From Candidatus Nitrosopumilus koreensis AR1 (GTDB lineage: Archaea > Thermoproteota > Nitrososphaeria > Nitrososphaerales > Nitrosopumilaceae), in contig NC_018655.1 of NCBI RefSeq assembly GCF_000299365.1, positions 1,380,001 through 1,412,000 of the forward strand: DNA of 32,000 bases, read 5' to 3'. The first letter of the stretch is position 1; every line of letters starts with the position of its first letter. The notes under the pieces are model-generated. The model was given only the letters and a program-made list of their open reading frames with translations. It searched no databases and was not told where the DNA came from. The translations under genes and the position numbers were made by a program. Of this stretch, positions 6,288-30,502 are shown one piece after another.

Positions 6288-6324
6288 TAACGTTATATTC
6301 AAATGAATTCAATAAAAATTGATC

Positions 6325-7628: not shown

Positions 7629-7629
7629 T

Positions 7630-8826: not shown

Positions 8827-8889
8827 GAATCTAATTCTACTTATTAGTATTGCAGAAATCGTTTAATGGTCACAAAACAAAATTACAGC

Positions 8890-9438: not shown

Positions 9439-9463
9439 TTAAATAATACCTTTTGATTTGAAA

Positions 9464-13870: not shown

Positions 13871-14221
13871 GTGAAAGATATAGAATTCAAATTAAATTCA
13901 ACAGATATTCATCCAAATTCCGAGATTAAAGGAACAATTACTGTGTCATATCCAGGCAGATATGACGGAGTAGTAATCAATACACAGATTTTGGATTCAA
14001 ATGAACACATCACCTACAAGTCATACAATGGAAAAACCATTTCAAATAATGTGGCAAGATTATTTATCAACAAAGACGTCATGATAGATGACAAAGCAGA
14101 ATTTACTGCAGTGATAAAATTTGAGCCAACCCAAGAATATGAAGTAAAATTCAGGGCATCAATTATTGAACAACACAAAGAAATTGAAAGTCAAATAATT
14201 TTTGCAAAGTATTCTAACTAG
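13871..14221 (+). CDS. Hypothetical 116-aa protein, predicted all-beta (weak arrestin-N/Spo0M-like pattern)
   Basis: ORF with GTG start. IEFKLNSTDIHPNSEIKGTITVSYPGRYDGVVI resembles the first strands of Spo0M/arrestin-type sandwiches, by eye only. Confidence 0.45.
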   Translation: MKDIEFKLNSTDIHPNSEIKGTITVSYPGRYDGVVINTQILDSNEHITYKSYNGKTISNNVARLFINKDVMIDDKAEFTAVIKFEPTQEYEVKFRASIIEQHKEIESQIIFAKYSN

Positions 14222-14679
14222 AATCTGCTCTTTTCTACAATAACTGAACCAGTCATCCATGGATGAGGTTGGCAATGATAATGAACTTCTTGTGGCTCAG
14301 TAAATAGAAATTCATAGGTATCTCCAGGTTTTAGAACACCAGTAGAGCCAAAATCACCACTGTACGTATCAGCATGCCTATGATCAGGGGTCACAGTGTG
14401 AGCAGTATCATCATGATTTTCCCAAATCACTTTGTTATTGATTTCTAACAACGCTTCAGCTTTGTTTGGAACGTAGTTTTCATTACCTTCTATAACAGCA
14501 CCAGGAACAATTTGTATAATTAGTTCTTTTTCAGGATTCAAAATGTGTTCAGATACAGAAGGCTTTGCCAAAGATTCTGGAAGGTAGAAAGATGTGTAAA
14601 ATACAACAGTTGCAGACATGCCAACAATTAATGCAATTAATCCTATACCATATGCATGACTTGATGTTGGACTACTCAT
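14218..14679 (-). CDS. Membrane-anchored plastocyanin-like type-1 (blue) copper protein
   Basis: N-terminal TM helix. Cu ligands are H in DDTAHTVTP and C/H/M in YHCQPHPWMTG (C-x2-H-x3-M spacing). An ATGA overlap with the cytochrome b stop suggests translational coupling. Confidence 0.85.
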   Translation of the reverse strand: MSSPTSSHAYGIGLIALIVGMSATVVFYTSFYLPESLAKPSVSEHILNPEKELIIQIVPGAVIEGNENYVPNKAEALLEINNKVIWENHDDTAHTVTPDHRHADTYSGDFGSTGVLKPGDTYEFLFTEPQEVHYHCQPHPWMTGSVIVEKSRF

Positions 14680-16265
14680 AATTTTTTCACCCCATCAAGA
14701 TCATCGGTTCCAATATTTGAGTCATTACTTGCACCAACTCCTAAATCGGATTGAGATTTTGGAGTAGGAATTTCAGGAGCCAATTCTTTTGGTTTTTCCT
14801 CTGGTTTGGTAGTATCTTCTGGAAGTTCACTTTGTTCAGATGTCTCAGGTTCTGCAAGTTTTGGTTTTTCATCAGATACTGGAACTGGTGGTGGCGGTGG
14901 AGCATTTTTTTGTTCACTTAATCCATATCTATACACATGGAAGAATGCTGCAAATACCAACAAAATAATTCCAATAAAGAACAATGATACATTCTTCATT
15001 CCTGTTAATGCTGCATTATATGCTGCAATGTTTAGAAATACTTGGAATGCTAATAATGCAATCAATACCCAATTAATCCATTTTTCAGAAAGATTGATTG
15101 TAGCCACTTTCTTTGGACCAGTACTTTTTGCAATCTTTGATTTTCTTTCTGCTTCATTTGCAAGCTTAATCATCATGTAAGTGAATCCAAATCCTAAAGG
15201 AACCATTAAGATCATTGTAGAATAGAAGAATATTGGATCAATTACCAGACGTTCTACCAATGGAACTGAGATGTCAGGTGAGATATAGAATCCCCAATAA
15301 GTTGTGACCATTATTTGTGCAAGACTAGTAATTCCAAATGCAGTGACAATTGGTCTTTCTCTCCAAGAGAATTTCTTGTATCTATCAATGAATGGAACCA
15401 ATACAAACGATATGATAAATATCAACGGCCAGAGTAACCCTGTTACAAACTTGTCATATTGTGTCCTCATGAACGCGTAAATTCCTGTCAAATACCACTC
15501 AGGAACAGTAACACCAGGCGGTACCGTAGGTTCAAACTTGAATCCCATGTCAATTGGGAACACACCTCCTGTGATGAGAATTGCACCACCAATTGCCATT
15601 ACCATAGGTACATCAAATACTAAGAACCGTGGAAAATGAACAGCCATCAATCCAAGCATAACAATTGGTAACAAGAATACATGTTGAGCATAGAATCTTA
15701 ATACAAAGTCAGAAAACCCACTACCCAACGCTGCATCACGAATTGTCGGGCCTGCAACAGGGATAGACGTTGTTAGAGACGCTGCAATACTAATTGCAAG
15801 TTCTGCTCGTTCACTAAAGATAACATCATATCCAGTAAATGCTTCTAAAATAGTTACAACACCCAAAATAACACCAGTCATCCATAATACTTCATTTCTA
15901 ATTTTGTATCTTCCACTAAAGTATTGATAATACATGTGAAGAACAGCCAAGAGTACCATTGCATTAGAGCCATGATAGTGTATGTTTCTTATATGGAAAC
16001 CAAATGGAACTTCGTCATTGATGAATTGAACACTATCCCATGCCCTATCCAAAATTGGTTGATAATAAAACATGAGTAGAGCTCCAGAAATTCCTAGAAT
16101 GATAAATACAATGAATGTTAACATTCCCAAAAATCCAAATGGACTTACAAATCTTGCAGGAAATGAAAACTTGATTGCAGTAAAGATGGTTCTATCTACA
16201 CCATCCCATAACCAATAAAGAAATTCAACTACACCGTTTCTTCTTTGCTCAAGCGAAACGGCCAT
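14676..16265 (-). CDS. Cytochrome b (complex III, fused b6/subunit IV-like) with extra C-terminal helices and a Pro/Glu/Lys-rich tail
   Basis: Heme-ligand pairs lie in IRNIHYHGSNAMVLLAVLHMY and AQHVFLLPIVMLGLMAVHF, and there are many TM helices. The track start is TTG 16271. I prefer ATG 16265, which has GGAG 9 nt upstream. Confidence 0.85.
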   Translation of the reverse strand: MAVSLEQRRNGVVEFLYWLWDGVDRTIFTAIKFSFPARFVSPFGFLGMLTFIVFIILGISGALLMFYYQPILDRAWDSVQFINDEVPFGFHIRNIHYHGSNAMVLLAVLHMYYQYFSGRYKIRNEVLWMTGVILGVVTILEAFTGYDVIFSERAELAISIAASLTTSIPVAGPTIRDAALGSGFSDFVLRFYAQHVFLLPIVMLGLMAVHFPRFLVFDVPMVMAIGGAILITGGVFPIDMGFKFEPTVPPGVTVPEWYLTGIYAFMRTQYDKFVTGLLWPLIFIISFVLVPFIDRYKKFSWRERPIVTAFGITSLAQIMVTTYWGFYISPDISVPLVERLVIDPIFFYSTMILMVPLGFGFTYMMIKLANEAERKSKIAKSTGPKKVATINLSEKWINWVLIALLAFQVFLNIAAYNAALTGMKNVSLFFIGIILLVFAAFFHVYRYGLSEQKNAPPPPPVPVSDEKPKLAEPETSEQSELPEDTTKPEEKPKELAPEIPTPKSQSDLGVGASNDSNIGTDDLDGVKKL

Positions 16266-16854
16266 ATCCAATTACTCCATTATCATTTGCATTGAAATTT
16301 GGTGGCATGATAAACACCAATCCATCTGAATCAATTTCTAAAGTTAGTTTAGGTAAAGTGTTTGAAGGTGCTGCTTGTACTGATGCAGGACCAACAAAAG
16401 CAGTTCCAGTTACCGGATCATACATACTTCCATGACAAGGACATTCTCCTCTTTTTCTTCCCTCATCAGGCCAATATTTCCATAAACACCAAAGATGTAA
16501 ACAAATCATACTATAAGCTCTAAATGCAGAGATATCATTTTTCCCACCACCTAATTCTTCAGGAAGTCGGATGAATTGCCACTTACGAAATGCTTCTGCG
16601 TCAAGTGCGGCATCCCCTGTAGCTGGATATGTAATGACTTCAGCGTGATTAACTGGATAAGTGTTAACATTTGCTTGAGTGCCATCAGGCAAAATTACAG
16701 GTACCTTTTCAAGAGAAGCCTGATTTGGGTTTGGCATGAAATTTCCAAATGGGACAAACGGAGCAAAAGCTAAACCAGTTCCTGCGGCACCCATTAACTT
16801 TAGAAAGTCTCTTCGGGATAATCCGGCAGACTTTTTTGTCCCCACCTCTGACAT
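16249..16854 (-). CDS. Rieske [2Fe-2S] protein with twin-arginine signal
   Basis: SRRDFLK Tat motif, and cluster boxes CLHLWC and CPCHGS. Confidence 0.9.
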   Translation of the reverse strand: MSEVGTKKSAGLSRRDFLKLMGAAGTGLAFAPFVPFGNFMPNPNQASLEKVPVILPDGTQANVNTYPVNHAEVITYPATGDAALDAEAFRKWQFIRLPEELGGGKNDISAFRAYSMICLHLWCLWKYWPDEGRKRGECPCHGSMYDPVTGTAFVGPASVQAAPSNTLPKLTLEIDSDGLVFIMPPNFNANDNGVIGYGRFA

Positions 16855-16897: not shown

Positions 16898-19800
16898 TTA
16901 CTTGGTAGGTTTTTGTCTAAGAATAAAGACAGAAACAATTCCGATCGCAACCCCTATTGCTATTCCTATTGTTATTCCAGTTGCCAAGGACGAATTTGTT
17001 TCTTCAGAGGAAAATACCACATCTTTTTGAATGGATTCTTTTGTAATATTTTCAGACATTTCTCTTGTCTTTGAATCAGAAACAGGTTGTTTTGATTCTG
17101 TAATTATTTCTGTATTTTGTGAGATTGTTTCCGGAGAAATATCTGTAAATTTAGCTACAAGCGTGATTGGTTCAGTTGTGAAGTTTCCTCCAAACAAGGT
17201 AGAATGCGTCAACAGAGTATAAGTGCCAGTTTGATTGATTGGCACATACAACACAGTTGATGTATCATCTTTGTTTTTTACTGGAAAAAATCCACCACCT
17301 TGACTAAATGGAGTGTTTCCTAACCAGTCAAGTGATGGCCATCCAAGAAAATGACCAAACACACCAGAAGGAACATTTGTTTGAATTATTTGTCCCAAGG
17401 GGTCCATAACAAATACGGACAGATTTGTATCACTGTTTTTCCATGAAATTTCAATTGCTGCAGAATTTACAGATTCGTTTTGTATATCAAAGTAATATTG
17501 TCTCCAGTCACCTGCCATGTAACGATTAACCATATCAAATGCACCTTTAGTGTATCCATTTCCATAAAGAATACTGTCACTTTGTTTTCCTTTGAGCATA
17601 ATTGTAGAATCATTTTCTGTTACTGGTTCTGTTATTACAAAAGATACAGGTGCATTTACTTCATGCAAGTTACTCTGGAAAGTTAAAAATCCTTGATACA
17701 CACCAGTTTCTAAATCATCGGGAGTAACCAAAGTAACATCTATTGTTGAAGAATCATTAGGTGGAACAATTATCATTTCAGATTCAGGCCACAGCATAGA
17801 CCATTTATCATCTTGATAATAACTTGCAGATATAGTATAATCCATTGATGTTGAGTTTTGATTTGTGTTTCCTAACCAGTAAGAGTATCGTGTTGGAACT
17901 GGATAAACGCCAACTAGTGGAACACCATCAAATTTTTCATCTGGTTCTGAAATTCTAATTTCCTGAACGGTTCCCCAAGAGCCTCCTCTATTGACTAGAG
18001 ATATTTCATCACTAGTAACTTTTGTATCATTGTTATTATCCAACCAATCATACAGATACAAGGAAGATATTTTGATATCATCTGCAAAAACATCCGAAGT
18101 ATTATTCAGGAATTGATTAAAAGGAAAATTTACATTAAGAACCATCAAAGAAGATTCATCAGGAACAGGATTTTTCTCATCAAAAAAATCCATTAGATCT
18201 TCATGTTGTTTGACATCAGATAGTTTTACATAGTTTGGAGCAAATGTGTCAGTTTTGTTTAGTATAGAGTCCTGCTGTCTTGGTATTGTTGTTCCATTAA
18301 ATTGAGTTTGTTTGATTAAGGAAAGAGTTTTTGATTTCACATCAATTGAAAGTGGTATATCAGTAGGGTTTTTGATTGTAAAAGTTGCAGTTGTTCTGTC
18401 CCCGGCATTTAATTGTCCTGCAAACCAACTAGTCATTGGAAAGGAATGCGAAGGAAGTTTAAACTGTTCAAACCCTACTTTTGTAGAATTAAAATTGTCA
18501 ATTATAGGGTCAAGTATACTTTTGATGTTTTCATAAGAGTCATTGTTTGATACAATAAACACTTCGTTATTTCCGTGTACATAATCCAAGGCAGACTCTG
18601 TGTTTACCAAACCAGAGCCCTGAGTAAATGGATCATTGTTCATATCAGTTGCAGTGGACATGAGGATATTTTTTATTAAGAAGGGATCATAGTCTTGAGA
18701 TTGTTTTTTCATCTCTTCAATCAATATGGCGGCACTCCCAGATACTAGTGGTGCTGCCATGCTAGTTCCTCCAAATAATGAAAAGGATTCATCTTTGGAA
18801 TTTTTTTGAGTTTTTATCACATTTGAGGGAACAAACCCATGTGCACCCATACTCATCACATCAGGTTTCGGATCACCTATAGCTGTGGGTCCTCTGCTAG
18901 AAAAATCAACTACATGATTATAGTGTTCAGTAGAATTTCCAAATCTTGGTTGTTCTTTGAATGGGCCATAACCAACAAATACATTATTTGTAGTTGCCCC
19001 AACTGCAATTCCAAATGGAGATGCATTTGGCAATCCTATTGTTCCATATCCATGTCCAGAATTTCCAGCACTAGAAACCATGACAACTCCAGGATAATCA
19101 TCATCAAGTGAATGAGGAGTTGCAAGCATACTTTGAATTAAGGACAAGATATCCATTCCAGGTGCAGCATTAAATGATGGAAAATTCGAAACACCCCAAC
19201 TATTAGAAATTATATCTACTCGAGGTTTACCAGAAAATGTCCAACCATTATTTTCATTTTCAAATCCTGCAGACCACAACCATGCATAAACAGTATCTCC
19301 AAACCATAATGCCTTTACAGGTAAAATTTTGGCATCAGGTGCAACTCCTGTTATGGAATATTTTTTCGTGTCATTATAGATATCGTATGTTTCTTGTCCA
19401 CGTGAGATAATTGACGCAGCACTGGATGTACCATGCCCCATAAAATCAGTCATAATACCAAAGAATTCACCATCAGGATCTAATGCAGGTAAAAGCGTTC
19501 CATTAATTGCATTTAATGTATCATCAATTTCAGTAGAGTTGTTTCGAATGACACCATAAACATCTAAAACTTGTGCACCAAATGTTCCTGCACTATAATC
19601 ATTTTTTCCATCAGCATTTGAATCATAAACAAGAAACTCTTTGCCACTTCCTAGAACGATTGGTTTTTCATCGGTAAAATCAAAGTCATAGTTTGGTCTT
19701 TGACCAGAAGGCAGATCAAATCTAGTATAATCCTCCCACGATGTAGTCATGTCTGGAATTATAGTATCATAAACTCCAGGAATAAAAGAATCAATTACAA

Positions 19801-20704
19801 GAACAGGTACAACTTGAATTTTTGCAAGAGGTCCGCTTAATCCCCCTTGATATATCACACCCAAGTGATACACACCACTTTTTGATTTTATGTAGTTTCG
19901 ATTGTCTTGTCCAATTTTCATATCATTTGATAGTGTCCCGTTAAAAACTGGAGAAGAGCCAATTTGAGGAAAGAATGAATTGTAAATTGGAATATCACTT
20001 CCCTTTCCCCCCTTAGAGATATCAAGAAACACCCCTTCCTTTGTTACATACGCAGAGGAGGTCATATGTGGTGGGATTGGCTTACTATAATTTCGGATTA
20101 TTTCGTTTTCATCAATGTATGCAAAAAAAGTTGCATTTGTTAGAACAATCCCTTGTCCATCAGGATCAAGCATAATTGGATGATTAATTTCATCTCGTGC
20201 AAGAGAGTGTTGAATGTCAGGATTTGAGAAATCTACCCCCGTATCCACAATTGCAACTACTATACCATTTCCTGATGCGCCATAATTTTGTTTAGCATTG
20301 TTTGAACCAGTAATTACACCAATTCTTGAAGCATCTGGAATTAAATCATTTGATGAATGAAAGTCAAGTTTAGAATCCTCAATCACATGAAGGCCTTGTA
20401 CAGATAACATTGAAGCTGATTTTTCAGATAATAATGAAACATAAAAAAATCCATTATCAGACTGAGCCCCATAAATGGAGTTATTCTTAAGATAATCAAA
20501 ATTTTGAGAGTTTGTTCCAAAAATCAAATAACGTTTGAAATTATTTTCAATAAAAAAACTATTATCTATATCTATTATTTGAGAATCAAATTCAATTTTA
20601 TTTGGTTCATCTTGCAAATATACATCATCGCCAGTAAATGCATATGAGTTTGTTAGAACACATGATAAGAGAATGATTGAAAAGAAAATAGCCACTTTGG
20701 GCAT
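16898..20704 (-). CDS. Giant membrane-anchored subtilisin-family (S8) serine protease, pyrolysin/TPPII-like architecture
   Basis: Catalytic motifs are VAIVDTGVD (Asp), HGTSSAAS (His), SNSWG (oxyanion Asn) and GGTSMAAP (Ser). Signal peptide MPKVAIFFSIILLSCVLTNSYA; C-terminal TM helix TGITIGIAIGVAIGIVSVFIL followed by RQKPTK. The track start 20794 overlaps the upstream gene. I prefer ATG 20704, which begins the signal peptide. Confidence 0.9.
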   Translation of the reverse strand: MPKVAIFFSIILLSCVLTNSYAFTGDDVYLQDEPNKIEFDSQIIDIDNSFFIENNFKRYLIFGTNSQNFDYLKNNSIYGAQSDNGFFYVSLLSEKSASMLSVQGLHVIEDSKLDFHSSNDLIPDASRIGVITGSNNAKQNYGASGNGIVVAIVDTGVDFSNPDIQHSLARDEINHPIMLDPDGQGIVLTNATFFAYIDENEIIRNYSKPIPPHMTSSAYVTKEGVFLDISKGGKGSDIPIYNSFFPQIGSSPVFNGTLSNDMKIGQDNRNYIKSKSGVYHLGVIYQGGLSGPLAKIQVVPVLVIDSFIPGVYDTIIPDMTTSWEDYTRFDLPSGQRPNYDFDFTDEKPIVLGSGKEFLVYDSNADGKNDYSAGTFGAQVLDVYGVIRNNSTEIDDTLNAINGTLLPALDPDGEFFGIMTDFMGHGTSSAASIISRGQETYDIYNDTKKYSITGVAPDAKILPVKALWFGDTVYAWLWSAGFENENNGWTFSGKPRVDIISNSWGVSNFPSFNAAPGMDILSLIQSMLATPHSLDDDYPGVVMVSSAGNSGHGYGTIGLPNASPFGIAVGATTNNVFVGYGPFKEQPRFGNSTEHYNHVVDFSSRGPTAIGDPKPDVMSMGAHGFVPSNVIKTQKNSKDESFSLFGGTSMAAPLVSGSAAILIEEMKKQSQDYDPFLIKNILMSTATDMNNDPFTQGSGLVNTESALDYVHGNNEVFIVSNNDSYENIKSILDPIIDNFNSTKVGFEQFKLPSHSFPMTSWFAGQLNAGDRTTATFTIKNPTDIPLSIDVKSKTLSLIKQTQFNGTTIPRQQDSILNKTDTFAPNYVKLSDVKQHEDLMDFFDEKNPVPDESSLMVLNVNFPFNQFLNNTSDVFADDIKISSLYLYDWLDNNNDTKVTSDEISLVNRGGSWGTVQEIRISEPDEKFDGVPLVGVYPVPTRYSYWLGNTNQNSTSMDYTISASYYQDDKWSMLWPESEMIIVPPNDSSTIDVTLVTPDDLETGVYQGFLTFQSNLHEVNAPVSFVITEPVTENDSTIMLKGKQSDSILYGNGYTKGAFDMVNRYMAGDWRQYYFDIQNESVNSAAIEISWKNSDTNLSVFVMDPLGQIIQTNVPSGVFGHFLGWPSLDWLGNTPFSQGGGFFPVKNKDDTSTVLYVPINQTGTYTLLTHSTLFGGNFTTEPITLVAKFTDISPETISQNTEIITESKQPVSDSKTREMSENITKESIQKDVVFSSEETNSSLATGITIGIAIGVAIGIVSVFILRQKPTK

Positions 20705-20735
20705 CAAAGAATTTTTGTTTCTTACATTATTATAA

Positions 20736-21704
20736 CTATCTTCTTCGTGCCAAAATTGCAATCTGTAATGCCACAATAATTCCAATAGATGCAATTATCG
20801 GAAAAAGCAGGGAATTTAGTTGGGATGACGCTTCACTGATAAACCCCACAGAAGTAGAAATGGTTCCTGTACTTTCATCGATTTTATTACTTGCAGTTTC
20901 CAATGTAGTACCAAACCCTTCAATTTCAGATTGTAAAACATCTAGTTCTTTGGAAGTCTCATCTAAAATTGTGTTTAGTCTAATTATTTGCTCAGATATT
21001 CCACCTAGATCTTGACTCAAAACAGTTGTTGCAGCAGAACCATGAGATGTTGTGCCCTGGCTAAATGCTACAACATGAAACACATGTGTTCCCTCTTCAA
21101 TTGGAGTGTAATCGACATAGTACAGTCCTTGATGCAAAGTCTTAAAGGAATTAGTTAAAGTAACTGACATTCCTGAAGGCAAATGAACATGTGTAGTCCC
21201 AAGTAATTCAGCGGGTTGATTTCCTATCAACAGTCCGTCACTTGTTATTTGTACAAATACTCTGATTGGTTGATTTATTGCTGCAATCTCTGGTGCAAAT
21301 ACCAATGTGTTTACAATTCTCTGTACAGGAACATTAAGGAGATCAGCAGTTGAGGAAAACTGTACATCAATTTTTTTTGATATACCATCTTGTTCGGTAC
21401 TAATTACCTCAACAGTGTATGTCCCATATGGAAAATTAGTTGATGGTTGGGGCCATGTCAATAAAGAATAATTAAAAGAGCCATCAGGATTTGTAGTTAG
21501 TTGATCAAACTTTGCGATTGTTTCATCAGGTGCAAATAACCTTAGAATCAAATTCTCTTCGGGCAAACCAGTCCCATAAACTTGAAGATTATGTGATGGT
21601 GCATAGACTTTGCTGTTTGTAGATAAATCAAGTGCTGCATAAGAGTTTGGAATTTGCATCATTAACAATATAGAAAAAAATAGAAACAAAATCTGAAATT
21701 TCAT
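20736..21704 (-). CDS. Type-I membrane protein: signal peptide, two beta-rich domains, helical stalk, C-terminal TM anchor (SlaB-like architecture)
   Basis: The signal peptide ends at NSYA/A. Beta-sandwich-like segments (YGTYTVEVIS, GLYYVDYTPIEEGTHVFHVVAF) are followed by a stalk of about 60 aa, heptad-like by eye (ISEQIIRLNTILDETSKELDVLQSEIEGF...). Then come the TM helix LLFPIIASIGIIVALQIAIL and RRR. The function is inferred only. Confidence 0.75.
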   Translation of the reverse strand: MKFQILFLFFSILLMMQIPNSYAALDLSTNSKVYAPSHNLQVYGTGLPEENLILRLFAPDETIAKFDQLTTNPDGSFNYSLLTWPQPSTNFPYGTYTVEVISTEQDGISKKIDVQFSSTADLLNVPVQRIVNTLVFAPEIAAINQPIRVFVQITSDGLLIGNQPAELLGTTHVHLPSGMSVTLTNSFKTLHQGLYYVDYTPIEEGTHVFHVVAFSQGTTSHGSAATTVLSQDLGGISEQIIRLNTILDETSKELDVLQSEIEGFGTTLETASNKIDESTGTISTSVGFISEASSQLNSLLFPIIASIGIIVALQIAILARRR

Positions 21705-21778
21705 TTTAATTTATTGCCAACCTTCTCCTAGATATTACTTCTGGAAAAATTGTCTATAACTTTCGTTAAGTAGGATTC

Positions 21779-21794
21779 AAAAAAGAAAAAAGGG
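21779..21794 (-). terminator. Oligo-T tract (CCCTTTTTTCTTTTTTG on minus strand) after the S-layer-type gene
   Basis: It starts 15 nt after the TAA at 21810-21812 and contains two T6 runs. Confidence 0.45.
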
Positions 21795-21809
21795 TAATGT
21801 GAACTAGTT

Positions 21810-24800
21810 TTATCTTACGTTGATAGTTGTACTAACTGGTGGTGATAATGCCGTTGGATTATCAACAGACTCCCAAACGAATGCAGTTGCCGTGTAGGTT
21901 CCTGCTTGAGTTGGAATCCATGATAAAGCTGGGCTGAATGATTGACCAGCAGATAGTGAACCTGTAATCCATGCTAGTGAGACTGTAACACCGTTAGCAT
22001 CCTGAATCTGTACCAAGTATGCAAATGGTTGCTCTCTATCCTGACCGTTTGCTAAGTCAGCGCTGATTTGTACCTGTTGGTCAACGGAAACAGAATCTAA
22101 GCTGTTACCGAATGCATCAACGGTTCTCAAGTTAGCAGCTGGTGCTCTCTCGAGAGGTGGTACTACAGTGCCAATTAGTGAAGTGGCAGTAATATCAAGT
22201 TCATCTGCAGTTGTGTATGGATCAGGTAGTGTATTGTCCTCATATTCTGCAGTGACAGTGTCACCTTCTGAAACTCTGAGTCTGTGACCAGATGATTCAT
22301 CAAGGGTTGTGAAGAACACAGTTCCCTCAAAGATTCCGGTTGCCTCATTAGTCTCAGTTACAGTAAGGTCAATACCTCCGGCATCGGAGTCAGACCACAC
22401 ATCGACATCGAAGTTGTCGACTGCTTCTGGATCTAAGTTCATGTCTGGATCAATAATTCTTACAACACCTGTTCCGCTAGCTGGATAACTTGCTTCAAGC
22501 CATTGGACCTCACCGATGTTCCATCTGATAAGGGCAGAGCCTACAATTGTTTCATCCTCTGAGAATTCAAAGGAGACAGTAAGTCCGTCATCATCATCAG
22601 TAGCTAAGAAGCCACCTGTTGGACCGCTACCAGTTGTGGTACCGGTTACATCGCCTGTGTTACCATCACCGTCAGCATCATGGGCGGAGAAACCTGTGAG
22701 GATTACTTCACCTGTGAAGATGCCTGTGTCAGTACCAGTTTCGACGAGTTTGTAGTTGTTGAGCTTGTGTCCTCTGGTAGAGACCTTTATTGGATCTTTA
22801 TCAGTATTTCCAATCTCATCAACTAGATCACTGTCAAAGTTGTGATCTGGTGCGACAATGGTAATGTAAACTTTGTCAGTCCATGTGTATACTTTTTGGT
22901 CAAGTTCGACAGTTGCACCGAAGTTTGAAGTGTAGATTGTCAAGTTGACATCTTCATCTTCATCTCCTACATAATCAGATCCGGATGGACCCCAGTCAGT
23001 ATACTCGAGGACAATTTCTTCTCCTCTTTCTAAGTTATCACCATCTAAAGCATCAGGAATTTCGATGACAATCTGGAAGATACCAGTAGAGTCACCTGTT
23101 TCTCTGAAGTCAGTTGGTTCTGGGTCAAATGCGGCTGCTGCGCCACTAACACCCTTGTTACCCATGGTTGTTGTTGCGGCATCAGAGTCCCATTCAATCA
23201 AGTCCAAGTCATAGGTCTCAGCAGCATCATTGTCAAGATCAAGGTCTGGCTCAATGAGTGTTAAGATCATGTCGGAACCGATAATGTATACGGATTTGTC
23301 GGATTGCAATACACCATTTCTAAGATCAAAGGTAGCAGAGTCAGTAACAGTATTTTCGGAACCTGATGCATCAGCTGGATCAGTGTATTCTACTTGGAGG
23401 ATATCTCCTTGCAAGATACAGTATTCTGTTCCAGAAGGTGCTGCGGCATCGAATCTGTTAGTGTCAGCTGTACCAGAGGTACCGTCAAGTGCAGCATATA
23501 GTGTACTATGATTTGCACATGTGGTGGATGCTGGTCCGTCGGTGAATTTAATGTCTACATCCAACTCGTAAATACCTGCATCTGGGGCGATTTCATCAAT
23601 CTCACCGAAGCTTCTAATCTTGCTAGTGGAGTTGTTATCACCAACATCAATTAGTCCAGTGTTTCTTTCTGAAGCGCCTGCATAACCGAGAACGACTTTA
23701 CTTGAACCTCTGATTACAGAGATTTTAAGTGCGTCATCTTGGTTCATTACATCTTCACCAGATGGGTTTACGTCAAAGTCTGGGTCGTTAATTCTTACGT
23801 GAATTGTTAGATCTCCTGATGGCAACTCCTCATCAGAATCAATAGTACCAGAAATGCCTGTGGCATGTATTGGGAATACTGATCTTCCGTTTGGAGATGC
23901 GTTTGCAGTAGCTGAAGATTCGCCTACGGTACCAAATGGTACGGGGTAGACGGTTCTATCAAGACTGACTGAACCAGTGTTTGCTCTAACGCCTGCAGAA
24001 TCACCGACTTCAACGATTTCACCAGAGGCATCTCTAAAGTCAACATAGTTGACTTCAATGTCGAGACCAGTGGTTGATTCGTATTGTCCTGGAGAACCAG
24101 TAGTGGTGGTATCTGCATTTCTACACCAAAATGATGGTATTTGGAAGTCACCTACAAAGACACCAGTTTCTTTACCTGTTTCAATTAGAGTAAATCCAGT
24201 TGCACCAAGTCCAGTATCTGATAGTACATCTTCTAATGATGAAGTTGCAGTTGCAGCTTTACCATCAGATGTACATGTGTTTTCATCAGGTGTTTCCCAT
24301 TGAACATCATCAAATGTGACATCTAGTAATCTACCAAGTTCACCAAAGCTCAATGTTTGAGTTGTTTTGGAACCAACCATATCTTCGGTCTTTCCAGAAC
24401 CTTGTTCGACTACGGTAAAGATGTCAATGAGGTCAGAGTCTACGTTAAGATCTAAGTCTTCTAAAGTAATTACTACAGTATCAGCTATCTTGTATGAATC
24501 TTGATTAAATGATACAACACCAGAGTGGCTTGGAGCCTCTTCTTGATCAGATACAGGAGTTACTACACCATCTGCACCCAAGTCATTATAGTTGACTCTT
24601 GGTGCGTCTTCGTCAGTAAGATCCTCAATTACGATAAATGATGGATCATCTGCGATTGGTGTGATACCAGCAAAGGTATCTGCATCCTGTATGTTAATTT
24701 GGTTAACCATGATATACTCAAGTGAACCTTCGAAGGTACTTGTGTTATCACCTGTTTCTTCGGCCTCAATTCTGATTATTTGGTTTGCAAACCTTTCGCC

Positions 24801-26951
24801 AGCCTGCACACCATCATCAGTGAAACCAAATGAGAAGAAGTCAGCAACGATTACTTCTTTGTCATCAATACTGGCAATACCATTTGTGGTATGTCCAGCA
24901 CTAGCTACGTTAAACTCGAATACGAGACCCAAGTTTTGACTAGATGGATTAGTTGATGTGAACAATTCACTATCAAGTCCATTTAATGATACATAGTCTT
25001 GCATCTTAGTAGAGTTATCTACTAGCAAGAATGCATTGTTTGAAGTACCATTGAATTTATCGTTATCAGCAAGAATTGCAGTTGTTTGGTTAATTAAGAA
25101 GATAGTAACATCTGAGCCTCCAAATGATTCAACGTTATAGTTGAAGAAGTTAAAGGCTACACCTGTTGAACCTGCTTTCTTAATTGTTTTTTGCAATTCT
25201 TCCATTGTTGTTTCCAAGTCTATTATTACCGTATCAAATCCTGCAGTTGTGTTTGCAGTCTGTGAGATTATTGCTCTTTGACTGAAAGTGTCTACTGCAG
25301 CAGTAGAAGTTATGTTATTGTGGTTTGCAGATACGGATACTAGATTATACGTTACTTGATCACCAGCAGCAGGTGAAGATGAACCAATAGTACGTTCTGT
25401 TACATTGAATATTGCAACATCTGGTGCTGTGGTAACTTCACCAATGGTGAATGGATCACCGGTTTTGAGTGCTGGAATTAAGGTTACGCTTGGGTTGTCC
25501 AAATCTAAGTCTTCATCGGCTCTGCTGTTCTTGTTTTGATCAGCATCAACAATGACTACTGGAATCTCTTCACCAGAGGTCCATTCGTCATCGACTGGCT
25601 GAATATCAATACTTGCAAAGTCGAATCCTACAAGAATAGTTTGAGGTGTTTCATTGTAATCGATTGATGCGGAGGTTCCCCTCTTTGCATTATCTGTAAT
25701 CTTTAGTACTGATTTGTCAGATTCATCATAAGTACCAAAGACACCACTGTTTGGACCTTGTTCGGTGAGGGTAACTGGGATGGAACCTATACCTAACTTA
25801 GCTGTCTCATTTGTAATACCAAATGCAGATGCATTGTTGGTACTAGCAGTTGAGTTAAGTTGGTCTAAGACAGTATCGTCATTATCCTGGATTGTCAAAA
25901 CTTTTGTGCCAGAGTTTTGTGCATCGGTGTTTAATTTCAATACACAATTGTCTTCACACATCAAGTCTGACAATGTAGTTCTCAGAGATAATGCGCTTCC
26001 ACCTGAAGCACCGTTTTCATCGAATACTTGGTAAAATGTATCAACATTGAAGGATGATGTTGTATTCTTCACGTTGGTAGCAAATGTCCAAGAGTCTTCA
26101 TCAGTTGGGTCAATGTTTAACCATAAGTCAGTAACTGTTGCGTGAACTTGTGCCAATCTTGGATATACAGCTCTGTCCAAACTCAATTCGGCAAATTGAT
26201 CAACAGTATCAAAAGTAAGTGTTGTTGATTGAACACCACCACCTTTGTTGTACTGTACGACAACGTTACCTGTTGGGTTTAGAGTATAGAGTTGAACGAA
26301 AGGCCAGGCATCATCAGCAGTAAGACCGATTTGGCCTCTGTTGACGTTTGTATTGCCTGCGTTAGGATCTTTTGCTTCTCTTACAACGTTATTGGTACCA
26401 TTAGCTGTTGATCCAGTAAGGCCAGCAAGATTACATGTTGAGGTGATTGTACCACCAGAACTGCTTCCTGTTTGTGTACCGTTACCTGATCCTACTGTAA
26501 TTGGAACTGCAATACCGTTTGTTTCAGAAGTTGAGAATCCTAAAATCGATGTACCAGATGCTGCGGAACAGAATGCACCAAAGTCCAATCCAGAACCTGC
26601 TGTTGTAGCAGTAGAGTCTGCGATTTGGGCTTGGTCTCTGTCTGCAAAGTAACCATACCAGTTACCATCAACTGCTTGAAGCATTCTCAGTTTCTTGCCG
26701 TTAACAGTTACGTCTGGTTCACCTTTTGCCTCATCGGTATCATTGATGTCACTGTCAATTACGACGACCTCAATTACTTGAGGTCCTGACATGTAGTTAT
26801 CAAACTGTGAGTTTTCTGCGGAAACAAAGAGATTGGCGTTGGCTGCATGTGCAGCAGGCATTACACCTGGAACTGCAAATGTCAGTCCACCGGCAATCAT
26901 AATTGTCATTAATGTAAGACTAGTTATTTTACGTCCTATTTCGTTATTCAT
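21810..26951 (-). CDS. Very large acidic secreted protein (1713 aa), probable S-layer protein
   Basis: Signal peptide ...AVPGVMPAAHA/ANAN and no TM anchor. The composition is T/S/D/G/V-rich and strongly acidic. A recurring domain-edge motif hxhxDxDxNxDxxxxD appears many times. G+C is visibly higher than in neighbouring genes. Size and composition match my recollection of thaumarchaeal S-layer proteins. Confidence 0.7.
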   Translation of the reverse strand: MNNEIGRKITSLTLMTIMIAGGLTFAVPGVMPAAHAANANLFVSAENSQFDNYMSGPQVIEVVVIDSDINDTDEAKGEPDVTVNGKKLRMLQAVDGNWYGYFADRDQAQIADSTATTAGSGLDFGAFCSAASGTSILGFSTSETNGIAVPITVGSGNGTQTGSSSGGTITSTCNLAGLTGSTANGTNNVVREAKDPNAGNTNVNRGQIGLTADDAWPFVQLYTLNPTGNVVVQYNKGGGVQSTTLTFDTVDQFAELSLDRAVYPRLAQVHATVTDLWLNIDPTDEDSWTFATNVKNTTSSFNVDTFYQVFDENGASGGSALSLRTTLSDLMCEDNCVLKLNTDAQNSGTKVLTIQDNDDTVLDQLNSTASTNNASAFGITNETAKLGIGSIPVTLTEQGPNSGVFGTYDESDKSVLKITDNAKRGTSASIDYNETPQTILVGFDFASIDIQPVDDEWTSGEEIPVVIVDADQNKNSRADEDLDLDNPSVTLIPALKTGDPFTIGEVTTAPDVAIFNVTERTIGSSSPAAGDQVTYNLVSVSANHNNITSTAAVDTFSQRAIISQTANTTAGFDTVIIDLETTMEELQKTIKKAGSTGVAFNFFNYNVESFGGSDVTIFLINQTTAILADNDKFNGTSNNAFLLVDNSTKMQDYVSLNGLDSELFTSTNPSSQNLGLVFEFNVASAGHTTNGIASIDDKEVIVADFFSFGFTDDGVQAGERFANQIIRIEAEETGDNTSTFEGSLEYIMVNQINIQDADTFAGITPIADDPSFIVIEDLTDEDAPRVNYNDLGADGVVTPVSDQEEAPSHSGVVSFNQDSYKIADTVVITLEDLDLNVDSDLIDIFTVVEQGSGKTEDMVGSKTTQTLSFGELGRLLDVTFDDVQWETPDENTCTSDGKAATATSSLEDVLSDTGLGATGFTLIETGKETGVFVGDFQIPSFWCRNADTTTTGSPGQYESTTGLDIEVNYVDFRDASGEIVEVGDSAGVRANTGSVSLDRTVYPVPFGTVGESSATANASPNGRSVFPIHATGISGTIDSDEELPSGDLTIHVRINDPDFDVNPSGEDVMNQDDALKISVIRGSSKVVLGYAGASERNTGLIDVGDNNSTSKIRSFGEIDEIAPDAGIYELDVDIKFTDGPASTTCANHSTLYAALDGTSGTADTNRFDAAAPSGTEYCILQGDILQVEYTDPADASGSENTVTDSATFDLRNGVLQSDKSVYIIGSDMILTLIEPDLDLDNDAAETYDLDLIEWDSDAATTTMGNKGVSGAAAAFDPEPTDFRETGDSTGIFQIVIEIPDALDGDNLERGEEIVLEYTDWGPSGSDYVGDEDEDVNLTIYTSNFGATVELDQKVYTWTDKVYITIVAPDHNFDSDLVDEIGNTDKDPIKVSTRGHKLNNYKLVETGTDTGIFTGEVILTGFSAHDADGDGNTGDVTGTTTGSGPTGGFLATDDDDGLTVSFEFSEDETIVGSALIRWNIGEVQWLEASYPASGTGVVRIIDPDMNLDPEAVDNFDVDVWSDSDAGGIDLTVTETNEATGIFEGTVFFTTLDESSGHRLRVSEGDTVTAEYEDNTLPDPYTTADELDITATSLIGTVVPPLERAPAANLRTVDAFGNSLDSVSVDQQVQISADLANGQDREQPFAYLVQIQDANGVTVSLAWITGSLSAGQSFSPALSWIPTQAGTYTATAFVWESVDNPTALSPPVSTTINVR

Positions 26952-27166: not shown

Positions 27167-27958
27167 TTATGCTTTGATCTGTTTGCCGAGGAGGCTTTTG
27201 TACAATGTTATAGCGTCGCCTTCATCTTTTGGTCCAACTACTACCGCAGATCCTTTCTTCATAAAGCTTACAGACAAATCATTAGTTCTCATCGATAACC
27301 CCAAGTCTCCTTGATTGTCTACAATGAATCCTTTTTCTTTTGCAATGTTGGTTACTTGTTCTACATTAAGATCAAATGTATCAGTTGGCGTAATGGAATA
27401 GGTTCTCTTTCCTCTATTTCTTCCACATAACTCTTCTAAAATGAATTCCTCTTTTTGTGTGACTTCAAGTTTTCCTGTTCCACAAATTGGGCATTCATCA
27501 GCTCTAAATGTTCTTGTGAAATTAAAATCAAGATTTTCTAAATCAACATGTAAAATTCTTTCAGAGAGATTTGGTTTTTTTCCAAGAATTATTTTTACAG
27601 CTTCTGCAACTTCAATTGCACCGATAATAGAAAGTATAGGAGGATGAACACCTTCAATACTACATGTTGGCATTGTATCTTCGTTTAATTCTGGAAACAT
27701 GCAAAAATAACATGCAGATTTTTTTGGCAAGATGGTAAAAGCTTGTCCAGATGTTCCAACTGCAGCACCTGTAACAAATGGAATGTTATATTTCACACAA
27801 GCTTTGTTTAATGCATATCTTGCATTAACACTATCAAGCGCGTCAATTACAACATCACATCCTTCAACAACTTCTAATGCAGTATAATCATTTATTGAAA
27901 TAGCTAGTGCTTCAATTTTACATTCAGGATTTAATTTTTGTAGTTTTTTTTGCAGCAA
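27167..27958 (-). CDS. E1-like adenylyltransferase (MoeB/ThiF/UbaA family), C-terminal two-thirds plus an unassigned 99-aa C-terminal domain; downstream part of a frameshifted gene
   Basis: LNPECKIEAL, DALDSVNARYALN, the two Zn-site pairs CYFC and CPIC, and the conserved Cys in PTCSIEGV. There is no ATG start; the frame opens only as a continuation of the upstream ORF via a +1 shift in an A8 run. Confidence 0.8.
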   Translation of the reverse strand: MLQKKLQKLNPECKIEALAISINDYTALEVVEGCDVVIDALDSVNARYALNKACVKYNIPFVTGAAVGTSGQAFTILPKKSACYFCMFPELNEDTMPTCSIEGVHPPILSIIGAIEVAEAVKIILGKKPNLSERILHVDLENLDFNFTRTFRADECPICGTGKLEVTQKEEFILEELCGRNRGKRTYSITPTDTFDLNVEQVTNIAKEKGFIVDNQGDLGLSMRTNDLSVSFMKKGSAVVVGPKDEGDAITLYKSLLGKQIKA

Positions 27959-28499
27959 CTTCTACTTTGACTTGTCCAACGTCATCTTCATCAAACATCA
28001 TTTGTCTATGCAAGTTTGATAATTCAATTACATCTCTATCAATAATTCGTAAATTTCCAACTCCCATTGTAGCTAATCTAGAAATTATTGGATGCCCTAG
28101 ACCTCCAGTTCCAACAACACATACTTTAGCATTTTTTAGTTTTAGTTGTCCACCATATCCAATTTCTTCAAGCATTACTTGTCTCGAAAATTTGTCAAGT
28201 TCTTTTGAGGATAGTTCTTCAGAGCCTCCAGCAACTGCAGGCAAAATGTAAACCTCATCACCATCTTTTAGAGGAGTTTCCATTCCAGAAGAAAATTTAG
28301 CATTCTTACCATTAATGTAGATATTAATCAAAGAACGAGGAGCCCCATTGCCTTCTAAAACTCGTCTCTTAAAATCATCACCCATCAGTTCAGAGATTTT
28401 GGCAAATGCGTCTTGCAATGAATTTGCAGACACTTCAGTTTTCTTTTCCCCCCCACCTTGATTTAGAACGGAGGGAATTGTAAATGTGATATTTGCCAT
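27924..28499 (-). CDS. MoaD/ThiS-like ubiquitin-fold domain (ending ...DGDEVYILPAVAGG) fused to the N-terminal Rossmann part of the E1-like enzyme; upstream part of a frameshifted gene
   Basis: Residues 1-93 have the beta-grasp sulfur-carrier signature with a Gly-Gly. The E1 N-terminus follows directly: LSSKELDKFSRQVMLEEIG...VVGTGGLG...DRDVIELSNLHRQ. The frame stops at 27924 after the A8 run. The ATG overlaps the ThrC-like stop (TAATG). Confidence 0.8.
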   Translation of the reverse strand: MANITFTIPSVLNQGGGEKKTEVSANSLQDAFAKISELMGDDFKRRVLEGNGAPRSLINIYINGKNAKFSSGMETPLKDGDEVYILPAVAGGSEELSSKELDKFSRQVMLEEIGYGGQLKLKNAKVCVVGTGGLGHPIISRLATMGVGNLRIIDRDVIELSNLHRQMMFDEDDVGQVKVEVAAKKTTKIKS

Positions 28500-29713
28500 T
28501 AGTTTACTACCGCCGAAATTTCTGAGATATCTGCTTTGAGTACTTTTGGTTTTTGTAGTACTTCCATAATAGATTCAGTTGCTTTAAGACCATTTCCAGT
28601 TACATAACATACAACCTTATCATTTTTGTCAATCTTACCTTGTTCTACCATTTTTTGCAATACAGAAACAGAAACTCCTCCAGCAGGTTCTGTAAATATT
28701 CCTTCAGTTTTGGCCAAGAGAAGTATTGCATCTAGAATTTCTTTGTTGTTACATTCTTCAGCAAACCCATTGTATTGTTCTAATCTTTTTAACACATATC
28801 GTCCATCTCCAGGATCACCTATTGCCAAACTTTTTGCAATAGTATCAGGATTCTCAACTGGGATTACATCTTTAGATTTTTTCTTGAATGCATCAACAAC
28901 AGGTGCACAACCATGTGGTTGTGCTGCAATCATGTGCATGTTAGATACATCACCAAGTAATGAGACATTTTGTAATTCTTCAAAGCCTTTACAAATTGCA
29001 TTAAGCATTGCACCACTACCAACTGGAACAATTAGTTGATCAGGTACACTCCATTCAAGTTGTTCTGCAACTTCATATGCCAAAGTTTTAGAGCCTTCTA
29101 CATAATGTGAACGCATGTTAATATTTACAATCCCAATTCCCTTAGAGTCACCAATTTGTGCTGCAATTCTGTTTGCATCATCATATGTTCCATCAACTGC
29201 AACATAGTTTGCACCATAAGACAAGGCTTGTGCAATCTTTGCCATTTCAATATTGCTTGGTGCAAATACATGACACGGAAAACCACCTTTTGCTGCATGA
29301 GCTGCAGTGGCTGATGCTAAATTGCCAGTTGATGCACAGCCAACTGCAGACAATCCAAATTCTTTTGCTTTTGATATTGCGACACCTGCAGGTCTATCTT
29401 TGAATGAAAATGTAGGATTTACAGAATCATTTTTTATGTATAGATTATTGAGTCCAAGTTTTTTACCCAAGTTTTCTGCTTTTGTTAATGGAGTCATTCC
29501 AGCATCAATACTAACAATGTTTGATTTTGATTCTATTGGAAGTAATTCGAAATATCTCCAATACGTATGTTCACGATTAGAAAAGGTATCTTTGGTAACA
29601 GTTGGAAAATCATATTTCACATCTAAGGGGCCAAAACAATCATCACAAATATACTTGAAAGCAGTATCATACTGTTTTTTGCATTCTCTGCATTGTAGTG
29701 ATGTTCTAGCCAA
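28499..29713 (-). CDS. Threonine-synthase-family PLP enzyme (ThrC-like) with N-terminal Cys4 zinc ribbon
   Basis: PLP-lysine motif NPTFSFKDRPAG, GCASTGN, PVGSGAM, and the ribbon CRECKK...CDDC. A TTG start is obligatory because an in-frame TAG lies 18 nt upstream. GGAGG sits 11 nt upstream. Sequence alone cannot tell whether this is the housekeeping ThrC or a sulfur-carrier-dependent paralog. Confidence 0.8.
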   Translation of the reverse strand: MARTSLQCRECKKQYDTAFKYICDDCFGPLDVKYDFPTVTKDTFSNREHTYWRYFELLPIESKSNIVSIDAGMTPLTKAENLGKKLGLNNLYIKNDSVNPTFSFKDRPAGVAISKAKEFGLSAVGCASTGNLASATAAHAAKGGFPCHVFAPSNIEMAKIAQALSYGANYVAVDGTYDDANRIAAQIGDSKGIGIVNINMRSHYVEGSKTLAYEVAEQLEWSVPDQLIVPVGSGAMLNAICKGFEELQNVSLLGDVSNMHMIAAQPHGCAPVVDAFKKKSKDVIPVENPDTIAKSLAIGDPGDGRYVLKRLEQYNGFAEECNNKEILDAILLLAKTEGIFTEPAGGVSVSVLQKMVEQGKIDKNDKVVCYVTGNGLKATESIMEVLQKPKVLKADISEISAVVN

Positions 29714-29929: not shown

Positions 29930-30502
29930 ATGAATGGCAAAGTCATAATTCCCATCATTGCTGTAGTAATTGCAATAGTTGCAATGATTGCAATTAATTT
30001 TGAACAACCAGAAACCATGGAGGTTGAGGATACGGTAAATAAGGAATTGGATCCAATTGAAGAAACAATACCAGAAATTCAAGAAAAATTAGAAGACATT
30101 GAAAAAATAAATCTTGAAAACGAATACACACCAAAAGAGAGAGAGTGGATTACTTCAGGACCATTTCAAATTGATCGAACTGAATATGTGTTGGGAGAGA
30201 AAATTTTTCTCAGAATTGGCGGATTAGATTATGAAGAAAAAGGTCAAGTTGTATTTTTAAAACCAAAAAACAGTACACATTACGAAGTTTATTTATCAAT
30301 TCCATTTGACGGGGCAGAAAAACCAGCATTCAATTATTATTTACAACCACAGCTTTCAAAATCAAGTGGATATTGTTCTGTGGATGAATTTGTAGGAGAA
30401 TGGAGAGTTGTTTTTAGAGGGACCGATTACCCTAATTTAGAATTTAAAATCATAAATAAGATACTTCCAGGAGATGAAGAGAGTTATCAACCTGTTTGCT
30501 AA
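29930..30502 (+). CDS. Hypothetical membrane-anchored protein (N-terminal TM helix, acidic linker, beta-rich ectodomain)
   Basis: 190 aa. TM helix VIIPIIAVVIAIVAMIAI, then the acidic stretch EQPETMEVEDTVNKELDPIEETIPEIQEKLEDIE. No recognisable family motif. Confidence 0.6.
   Translation: MNGKVIIPIIAVVIAIVAMIAINFEQPETMEVEDTVNKELDPIEETIPEIQEKLEDIEKINLENEYTPKEREWITSGPFQIDRTEYVLGEKIFLRIGGLDYEEKGQVVFLKPKNSTHYEVYLSIPFDGAEKPAFNYYLQPQLSKSSGYCSVDEFVGEWRVVFRGTDYPNLEFKIINKILPGDEESYQPVC

Follow-up and report, generated by a model that had tools for sequence, protein, structure and literature searches.

A candidate protein-thiocarboxylate-dependent homocysteine operon in Candidatus Nitrosopumilus koreensis AR1, with the sulfur carrier fused to its own E1

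In Streptomyces albulus, metM and metO encode an enzyme homologous to threonine synthase (ThrC) and a sulfur-carrier protein, under the control of an S-adenosylmethionine (SAM) riboswitch (Hasebe et al. 2024, Appl Environ Microbiol 90:e01247-24, as summarised in GapMind 2026 and PMC12172450). There, MoeZ (the E1-like activating enzyme) and Mec (the peptidase) are each encoded by a separate, shared gene. PMC5764234 cites an HcyS/HcyD/HcyF/MetY pathway of Wolinella succinogenes. In the CysO/CysM/Mec+/MoeZ system of Mycobacterium tuberculosis, an E1 activates the carrier and the resulting thiocarboxylate feeds a pyridoxal 5'-phosphate (PLP) enzyme, a CysM-type cysteine synthase acting on O-phosphoserine. 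Here we analyse a related operon in a 32,000-nt stretch of Candidatus Nitrosopumilus koreensis AR1 (NC_018655.1, positions 1,380,001-1,412,000; hereafter the window, to which the coordinates of the operon refer). It joins a ThrC-family enzyme to a protein that begins with a ubiquitin-like (Ubl) sulfur-carrier domain and continues into an E1 domain. We consider it probable that the operon is a MetM/MetO-type module for protein-thiocarboxylate-dependent synthesis of homocysteine, in which the carrier emerges from translation as the N-terminal part of the E1 that activates it.

The operon resembles metM/metO of S. albulus in placing the gene for a ThrC-homologous PLP enzyme directly upstream of a ThiS/CysO-type carrier with a Gly-Gly motif, and in its likely chemistry, by which O-phosphohomoserine and the carrier thiocarboxylate would yield homocysteine. 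It differs in its archaeal host, in the fusion of the carrier to the E1, which makes the Gly-Gly internal and contrasts with the separate, shared E1 and peptidase genes of S. albulus, and in having no SAM riboswitch; the only Rfam family in the window is one tRNA, and a SAM riboswitch, as a bacterial regulatory feature, is not expected in archaea. M. tuberculosis provides the closest carrier of solved structure and the same succession of E1 activation and delivery to a PLP enzyme, but its carrier is free-standing and a JAMM peptidase lies in the operon. W. succinogenes offers protein-thiocarboxylate-dependent homocysteine synthesis with an E1 that has no fused rhodanese, and a precedent for exposing a Gly-Gly by proteolysis. 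The PLP enzyme there is MetY, an O-acetylhomoserine sulfhydrylase of fold type I with O-acetylhomoserine as substrate, and a short carrier tail is removed rather than the whole 350-residue enzyme of the ammonia-oxidising archaea (AOA). Krishnamoorthy and Begley are said to have reported in 2011 that this carrier is trimmed C-terminally by a JAMM peptidase before activation.

Both genes of the operon lie on the minus strand. The ThrC-like open reading frame (ORF) has 404 residues and a PALP domain (E 6e-73), and its neighbour is NKOR_08430. The predicted overlap of the enzyme's TAA stop with the next ATG is present and couples the translation of the enzyme and Ubl-E1 genes. The operon comprises the following features:

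28499..29713, minus strand: MetM-like PLP enzyme of the ThrC family, 404 residues, named 'threonine synthase' in the databases (AFS81542.1 / WP_014963921.1)
28497..28501, minus strand: TAATG stop/start overlap of the enzyme and Ubl-E1 genes, read from the sequence
29636..29692, minus strand: N-terminal CxxC...CxxC zinc-ribbon of the enzyme (C8, C11, C23, C26), from an alignment of orthologues
29399..29401, minus strand: codon of the predicted PLP-binding lysine, K105 in NPTFSFKDRP, aligned with the Lys of NPTGSFKDRG in solved ThrCs
28224..28499, minus strand: CysO/MetO-type β-grasp sulfur-carrier (Ubl) domain, residues 1-92, ending PAVAGG (ThiS PF02597, E 1.9e-9)
28224..28229, minus strand: internal Gly91-Gly92 codons, the predicted cleavage and adenylation site, from conservation
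27924..28223, minus strand: linker and N-terminal part of the E1 adenylation domain (GTGGLG, DRD...SNLHRQ; ThiF profile positions 1-87), up to a premature stop caused by a frameshift
27944..27951, minus strand: A8 homopolymer with a one-base insertion (T8 on the plus strand), from comparison with relatives
27446..27958, minus strand: rest of the E1 in the shifted frame, with DALDS, two CxxC zinc pairs and the conserved Cys in PTCSIEGV (ThiF profile positions 80-236)
27170..27445, minus strand: C-terminal β-β-α-β4-α domain, residues ~352-443 of the intact protein, with a conserved ELCGRxxGKR (model secondary structure; NF009123 over 102-436)

To judge by its motifs, the enzyme belongs to the ThrC family of PLP enzymes (fold-type II) and keeps the PLP lysine, and the databases uniformly label it threonine synthase. 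Against NF006050 it scores 302.9 bits (cut-off 303), and against the cysteate synthase model 86 bits (cut-off 325). Its top match outside the Thaumarchaeota is a protein of Nonomuraea gerenzanensis (45.5% identity over the full length, E 2e-94) in a tblastn search of annotated plasmids and chromids, where genes annotated as thrC reached 31-37%; the relationship was confirmed by the reverse search. A SAM riboswitch (RF00162, 68.7 bits) precedes the Nonomuraea gene, and a gene for a 91-residue ThiS-family carrier that ends IIPAVAGG-stop follows it, a layout that matches metM/metO of S. albulus as reported. The record that holds it (NZ_LT559118.1) is filed as a plasmid but is in fact an 11.85-Mb chromosome, scarcely annotated, with three ThrC-like places, of which the riboswitch-controlled gene is one.

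A tree was built from the Thaumarchaeal proteins, the Nonomuraea protein, five structurally solved threonine synthases and two zinc-ribbon 'thrC' genes without a Ubl neighbour. The Thaumarchaeal and Nonomuraea proteins form one clade in 100 of 100 bootstraps, apart from the five solved ThrCs. The original prediction had left it to phylogeny whether the enzyme clusters with housekeeping ThrC, and it does not: its partner is the riboswitch-controlled Nonomuraea homologue. Core identity of the Thaumarchaeal enzyme follows the same division, at 47-50% to the Nonomuraea homologue and 35-40% to the five solved ThrCs. Four motifs that are invariant in the latter are altered in the Thaumarchaeal and Nonomuraea proteins alike: NPTGSFKDRG becomes NPT[FYH]SFKDR[PV], STGNT becomes STGNL, NPxR-EGQKT becomes [ML]R[SP]xY-EGSKT, and PVGNAGN becomes P[VI][GA]SG. 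Two ThrC-invariant residues are thereby replaced by Leu and Tyr, namely T88 and R160 of Thermus thermophilus ThrC, which we take to help hold the phosphate that directs water addition. The loss of their equivalents would suit a γ-replacement enzyme. The four Cys of the zinc-ribbon are invariant in five of five Thaumarchaeal orthologues, and the ribbon also occurs in the Nonomuraea protein; it is not found in the five solved ThrCs, whose alignments start at residue 52-56. Two oddities in the ThrC-like protein cluster were set aside: 440-residue 'adenylyltransferases', which are ordinary Ubl-E1 proteins and apparently a listing quirk, and a ThrC-like protein of 466 residues (P0121), in which ~60 residues are duplicated in tandem, probably through faulty assembly.

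The pairing of enzyme and carrier is conserved throughout the AOA. We sampled the best 80 species-level genomes from a contig scan with a ThrC-like alignment, all of them Thaumarchaeota. In every locus with enough downstream sequence, the Ubl follows the enzyme immediately, with an overlap or a gap of 0-45 nt. All told, the pair is adjacent in each of more than 80 informative loci. The linkage spans Nitrosopumilus, Nitrosarchaeum, Nitrosotenuis, Nitrosotalea, Nitrosopelagicus, Cenarchaeum, Nitrososphaera, Nitrosocaldus and an unplaced lineage; the genes on either side differ from locus to locus. The enzyme gene lies directly upstream of the fusion in Ca. N. sediminis, in Nitrosocaldus, in Nitrososphaera and in the unplaced lineage, whose flanks are wholly different. 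The synteny on which the original prediction would stand or fall is thus present in each informative locus. Apart from the pair itself, only the his operon and a gene for a small membrane protein recur as neighbours in the 86 loci inspected; no rhodanese gene recurs beside the operon, and none of these loci contains a second ThrC-like gene. More than 100 close homologues of the fusion have 443 residues with ThiS and ThiF domains, and the architecture recurs in Nitrosocaldus, Nitrososphaera and Nitrososphaerales.

The carrier domain has the β-grasp pattern at residues 1-87 of the predicted structure, and among solved structures it comes closest to M. tuberculosis CysO (3dwg_C, E 3.8e-11), aligned over residues 3-92 against 2-93, and to 4n6e_B. 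It aligns end to end with the free carrier of Nonomuraea (32% identity, E 1e-16). The ThiS-family β-grasp domain ending ...DGDEVYILPAVAGG was correctly recognised in the original prediction, although its length is 92 residues rather than 93, with the Gly-Gly at residues 91-92. The motif PAVAGG is kept in 80 of 83 Thaumarchaeal sequences, and the Gly-Gly is invariant in 19 of 19 diverse Ubl-E1 fusions with three different C-terminal architectures. In the uncleaved fusion, the peptide across the Gly-Gly reads ...AVAGGSEELSSK, and the residue after Gly92 is Ser93. A free C-terminal Gly-Gly occurs neither in the window nor in most AOA, where the Gly-Gly is internal and the E1 follows; we infer that it must be exposed by cleavage. 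Autoproteolysis by an N-to-O acyl shift at GG|S was considered as a means of cleavage and rejected: the Ser is usual in AOA, but the position is taken by S, D, H, A, K, G or E across diverse fusions.

Unfused variants bear directly on where the carrier ends and to which partner it belongs. In four Nitrosopumilaceae genomes (OZ240211.1, here L032, together with OZ244651.1, OZ250186.1 and CBDCOI010000001.1, which include L077, L078 and L084), a free-standing Ubl lies directly after the enzyme. The free Ubls of L032 and L084 end exactly at ...AVAGG-stop, and those of L077 and L078 carry four residues beyond the Gly-Gly (GGSDLS or GGSGLS). L077 and L078 (Ubl at positions 7215-7505 of each locus) and L084 (7213-7491) come from deeper-branching Nitrosopumilaceae with genomes of 2.1-2.5 Mb; no E1 lies within 6 kb of the free Ubl in these three, and the ORFs downstream in L077 are unrelated to the module. 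L032, a metagenome-assembled genome of Nitrosopumilus sp., shows a different history at 7215-9600: residues 93-148, in the former E1 region, are deleted, and a 408-residue DDE_Tnp_4 transposase sits between the E1 remnants. The enzyme and carrier are intact despite the wrecked E1, which makes this locus a natural knockout of the E1 domain. Together with the conservation of the Gly-Gly, the unfused variants and the decayed E1 of L032 indicate, at the level of sequence, that the Gly-Gly is the functional end of the carrier and that its obligate partner is the PLP enzyme, not the E1.

The second gene does not form one ORF in the window. It is divided between an ORF of 191 residues (27924..28499), which holds the ThiS domain and ThiF profile positions 1-87, and one of 263 residues (27167..27958), which holds ThiF profile positions 80-236 and ~95 further residues; the two halves correspond to the RefSeq proteins WP_232212218.1 and WP_232212217.1 of Ca. 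N. koreensis. Every E1 motif named in the original prediction is present (GTGGLG, DRD...SNLHRQ, CYFC, CPIC and PTCSIEGV), but the prediction had read through the frameshift unnoticed and taken the domain as continuous. At the homopolymer where the frame changes, the window has A8; the closest metagenomic relative has A7, as do 27 of 75 related loci, and A8 with a split at this site is confined to the window. Over 7503 bases, one homopolymer base is all that separates the window from Nitrosopumilus sp. SJ (AJVI01000004.1), which has A7 and an intact Ubl-E1 protein of 443 residues (WP_016939491.1). Because A8 is unique to the window among the 75 loci and the near-identical strain SJ is intact, we take the frameshift to be an error of sequencing or assembly at the homopolymer, which is the likelier case, or else a mutation that arose very recently in this strain. 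The system as such does not include it, and programmed frameshifting at the A-run was rejected on the same uniqueness of A8 to this assembly. The remaining genes of the window are intact, although ~10 further 8-base homopolymers occur in it.

In intact orthologues, the E1 domain is complete. The Rossmann nucleotide-binding motif, the catalytic Asp, the zinc CxxC pairs and the conserved Cys, which are split over two frames in the window, are invariant in 35 orthologues. A structural model of an intact orthologue (predicted local distance difference test (pLDDT) 84, predicted template-modelling score 0.73) has an E1 core that superposes on ThiF/MoeB with template-modelling scores of 0.94-0.95 at 1.4-2.0 Å. 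The sole stretch of the model with pLDDT below 50 is residues 89-93, the Gly-Gly and the start of the linker, which is disordered. The fusion has no C-terminal rhodanese domain of the MoeZ/MOCS3/Uba4 subtype, and carries the β-β-α-β4-α domain in its place; Ubl-E1 fusions of the rhodanese type are found in other organisms among the diverse fusions compared. Makarova and Koonin 2010 termed this C-terminal domain 'TBP-like'. It is not special to the system, since ordinary Firmicute ThiF/MoeB have the same extension. A reading of the E1 as part of a defence system (Cap2/Bil-like) was set aside: the NCBIfam matches are weak and partial, and the operon is conserved housekeeping.

Published tables place the operon in its genomic context. 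'Ubl-E1-TBP in Thaumarchaeota' is listed as an architecture by Makarova and Koonin 2010, whose supplementary tables include the 404-residue/443-residue pair of N. maritimus and the CENSYa_2045/2046 pair of C. symbiosum; this is the same protein as the AOA fusion. N-terminal Ubl-ThiF fusions were also described by Iyer, Burroughs and Aravind (Iyer et al. 2006), who proposed that JAB peptidases cleave fused Ubls and so release them. The fusion is thus less odd than the original prediction held, having been catalogued in 2010, and a means of releasing fused Ubls had been proposed in 2006. Neither 'threonine synthase' nor homocysteine occurs in the main text of these two papers, where the function is unassigned. 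According to Table S1 of Makarova and Koonin 2010, N. maritimus and C. symbiosum each have a single E1-like gene; the ThiS type is absent, and the MoaD type has two entries. We read the two entries as this fusion and the Cgi121-Ubl fusion that the main text of that paper describes, so that no free carrier is left. In the same table, MoaA, MoaB, MoaC, MoaE, MoeA, MobA, MobB and ModA are all 0 in both organisms. Since no molybdenum-cofactor gene is present in either, service of the Ubl-E1 to molybdenum-cofactor synthesis, which the original prediction had kept as an alternative, is excluded.

The original prediction also remarked that the window holds no gene for a JAMM peptidase, a rhodanese or a cysteine desulfurase. 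This is correct for all genes of the window, but peptidases and rhodaneses do exist elsewhere in the related genomes: the supplement of Makarova and Koonin 2010 lists two JAB peptidases each in N. maritimus and C. symbiosum, with five rhodaneses in the former and three in the latter. A different arrangement is seen on the Aliarcobacter cibarius plasmid NZ_CP043858.1, where a sulfur-assimilation island (54000-70000) encodes a zinc-ribbon 'threonine synthase', a cysteine synthase, an M67 (JAMM) peptidase, a MoaD/ThiS carrier and a rhodanese. An E1-matching stretch without a listed gene lies between the carrier gene and an IS5 transposase, and a family 2A encapsulin with cysteine desulfurase cargo is also present. 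The M67 peptidase of this island stands beside CysM and the carrier, unlike at the AOA loci.

From this information we assembled a model of how the module may work. The gene arrangement provides for coupled production of two proteins, the MetM-like PLP enzyme and the Ubl-E1-TBP polyprotein. An unlinked peptidase, most likely one of the two JAB/JAMM proteins, would cut after Gly92 and free a 92-residue carrier ending in Gly-Gly. By analogy with its family, the E1 would then adenylate the terminal glycine, and sulfide or a persulfide would convert it to the thiocarboxylate. As no rhodanese domain is fused, the sulfur may come directly from sulfide or by way of a free rhodanese. The MetM-like enzyme would eliminate phosphate from O-phospho-L-homoserine and add the carrier thiocarboxylate at the γ carbon, giving homocysteine. 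As in the CysO/CysM/Mec system, release may pass through an adduct, here of carrier and homocysteine, that is hydrolysed by the same JAMM peptidase.

Several observations weigh against the homocysteine module. The enzyme passes the TIGR00260 (thrC) model with 291 bits (cut-off 167). Its arCOG, arCOG01434, is named 'threonine synthase and cysteate synthase' in the supplements of Sheridan et al. 2020, who read the acquisition of this arCOG as a gain of threonine synthesis; searches of the literature and of these supplements for a second, canonical thrC gave only this gene's arCOG. The Nonomuraea protein is a proxy for S. albulus MetM, chosen by riboswitch, operon and ThrC identity (35.7% to B. 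subtilis ThrC, where 33% is reported for MetM itself). No JAMM gene lies within 6 kb of the operon in 86 of 86 loci, and the free-Ubl genomes and L032, with its decayed E1, must draw E1 activity from a source not visible at the locus. The profile score, the database label, the arCOG reading and the failure of these searches to turn up a second thrC would all fit an enzyme that is the housekeeping threonine synthase, next to a Ubl-E1 that serves tRNA thiolation or SAMP-like conjugation, their adjacency being a matter of co-regulation or history. The fusion is, moreover, the only E1 of N. maritimus and C. symbiosum, so other Ubl functions, for example that of the Cgi121-Ubl fusion, would also depend on it. 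We nevertheless regard this explanation as rather unlikely, given the full bootstrap separation from the five solved ThrCs and the grouping with a SAM-riboswitch gene, the Leu and Tyr at two positions that presumably bind phosphate in ThrC, and a stop/start coupling that is kept over the deepest AOA splits while the flanks change. The carrier, too, stays with the enzyme when the E1 is lost or unfused, and it is CysO-like, the type that feeds PLP enzymes.

The carrier thiocarboxylate might instead be used for another sulfur compound, such as cysteine from O-phosphoserine, through a CysM-like β-replacement by a ThrC-fold enzyme as in cysteate synthase, or for some other thio-metabolite. The ThrC family does include cysteate synthase, which acts on O-phosphoserine, and the name of the arCOG covers both activities; the best solved relative of the carrier is from a cysteine pathway, and the homocysteine specificity of the enzyme is a prediction. 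Such a product is unlikely in view of the low score against the cysteate synthase model, the riboswitch of the sister bacterial gene, which is a methionine/SAM signal and not a cysteine one, and the fit of the operon to the published description of MetM/MetO. A further possibility is that the fused Ubl is never cleaved and is no sulfur carrier at all: its role would be docking or regulation, and it might, for instance, hold the E1 and the PLP enzyme together. Iyer et al. 2006 inferred a different role for the fused domain of bacterial Ubl-ThiF fusions, which usually have a stand-alone ThiS as their neighbour, and the operon has no linked peptidase in the 86 loci. We find this quite improbable for the AOA: neither N. 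maritimus nor C. symbiosum offers the E1 a stand-alone ThiS/MoaD protein as substrate, the Gly-Gly is retained across the 19 divergent fusions, orthologous free-standing Ubls end exactly at it, and the segment around it is the only disordered part of the model. With phylogeny, synteny and the molybdenum-cofactor tables all favourable, the original interpretation of the operon as a homocysteine module is the one that these comparisons support.

Ammonia-oxidising Thaumarchaeota are among the most numerous microbes of ocean and soil, and they grow without added amino acids. A literature search found no paper that says how they make homocysteine. The fusion was known in 2010 and the pathway in 2024; what is new is the assignment of the pathway to the AOA in a form with a fused carrier. 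If the assignment is right, it would extend the MetM/MetO route to a major archaeal phylum and correct two names that are wrong throughout the databases: 'threonine synthase', and 'molybdopterin-synthase adenylyltransferase' in organisms without a molybdenum-cofactor pathway. The system would also allow a natural test of how a ubiquitin-like carrier works when it is produced in one polyprotein with its E1, for which the free-carrier orthologues that end at the Gly-Gly are built-in controls. A more speculative and rather doubtful extension is that this enzyme is the sole ThrC-family enzyme of the AOA and splits O-phosphohomoserine between threonine (with water) and homocysteine (with the thiocarboxylate) according to the level of charged carrier, the single E1, freed by an unlinked JAMM peptidase, acting as the switch. 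Were this so, one operon would set the balance of threonine and methionine in some of the most abundant cells of the ocean.

The window holds further genes besides the operon. Divergent from the enzyme gene, at 29930-30502 on the plus strand, lies a gene whose 190-residue hypothetical product has a hydrophobic segment at its N-terminus and matches no Pfam family; the 2010 tables place it in arCOG08828, and 54 of 86 loci keep it at the same position. A scan for σ70 promoters and terminators is uninformative for an archaeon. A tRNA-modification and translation cluster occupies 4129-10981, with a Tyw1-like radical SAM protein (wyosine), Ham1, an Obg-like GTPase, a Bud32/RIO-type kinase next to Kae1/TsaD (KEOPS), a small AAA kinase and an archaeosine-type tRNA-guanine transglycosylase. 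A respiratory cluster at 14218-16854 (minus strand) encodes a plastocyanin-like copper protein, a 531-residue cytochrome b and a Rieske protein with a twin-arginine translocation signal. Very large secreted or surface proteins are encoded at 16898-26951 and 1552-3990, both on the minus strand; one of them, of 1713 residues and without a Pfam match, adjoins the operon in N. maritimus and strain SJ as well. The others include a 1298-residue subtilase and an 812-residue thrombospondin type-3 repeat protein, and the subtilase ORF shares 59 nt with an ORF of 322 residues at 20736-21704.

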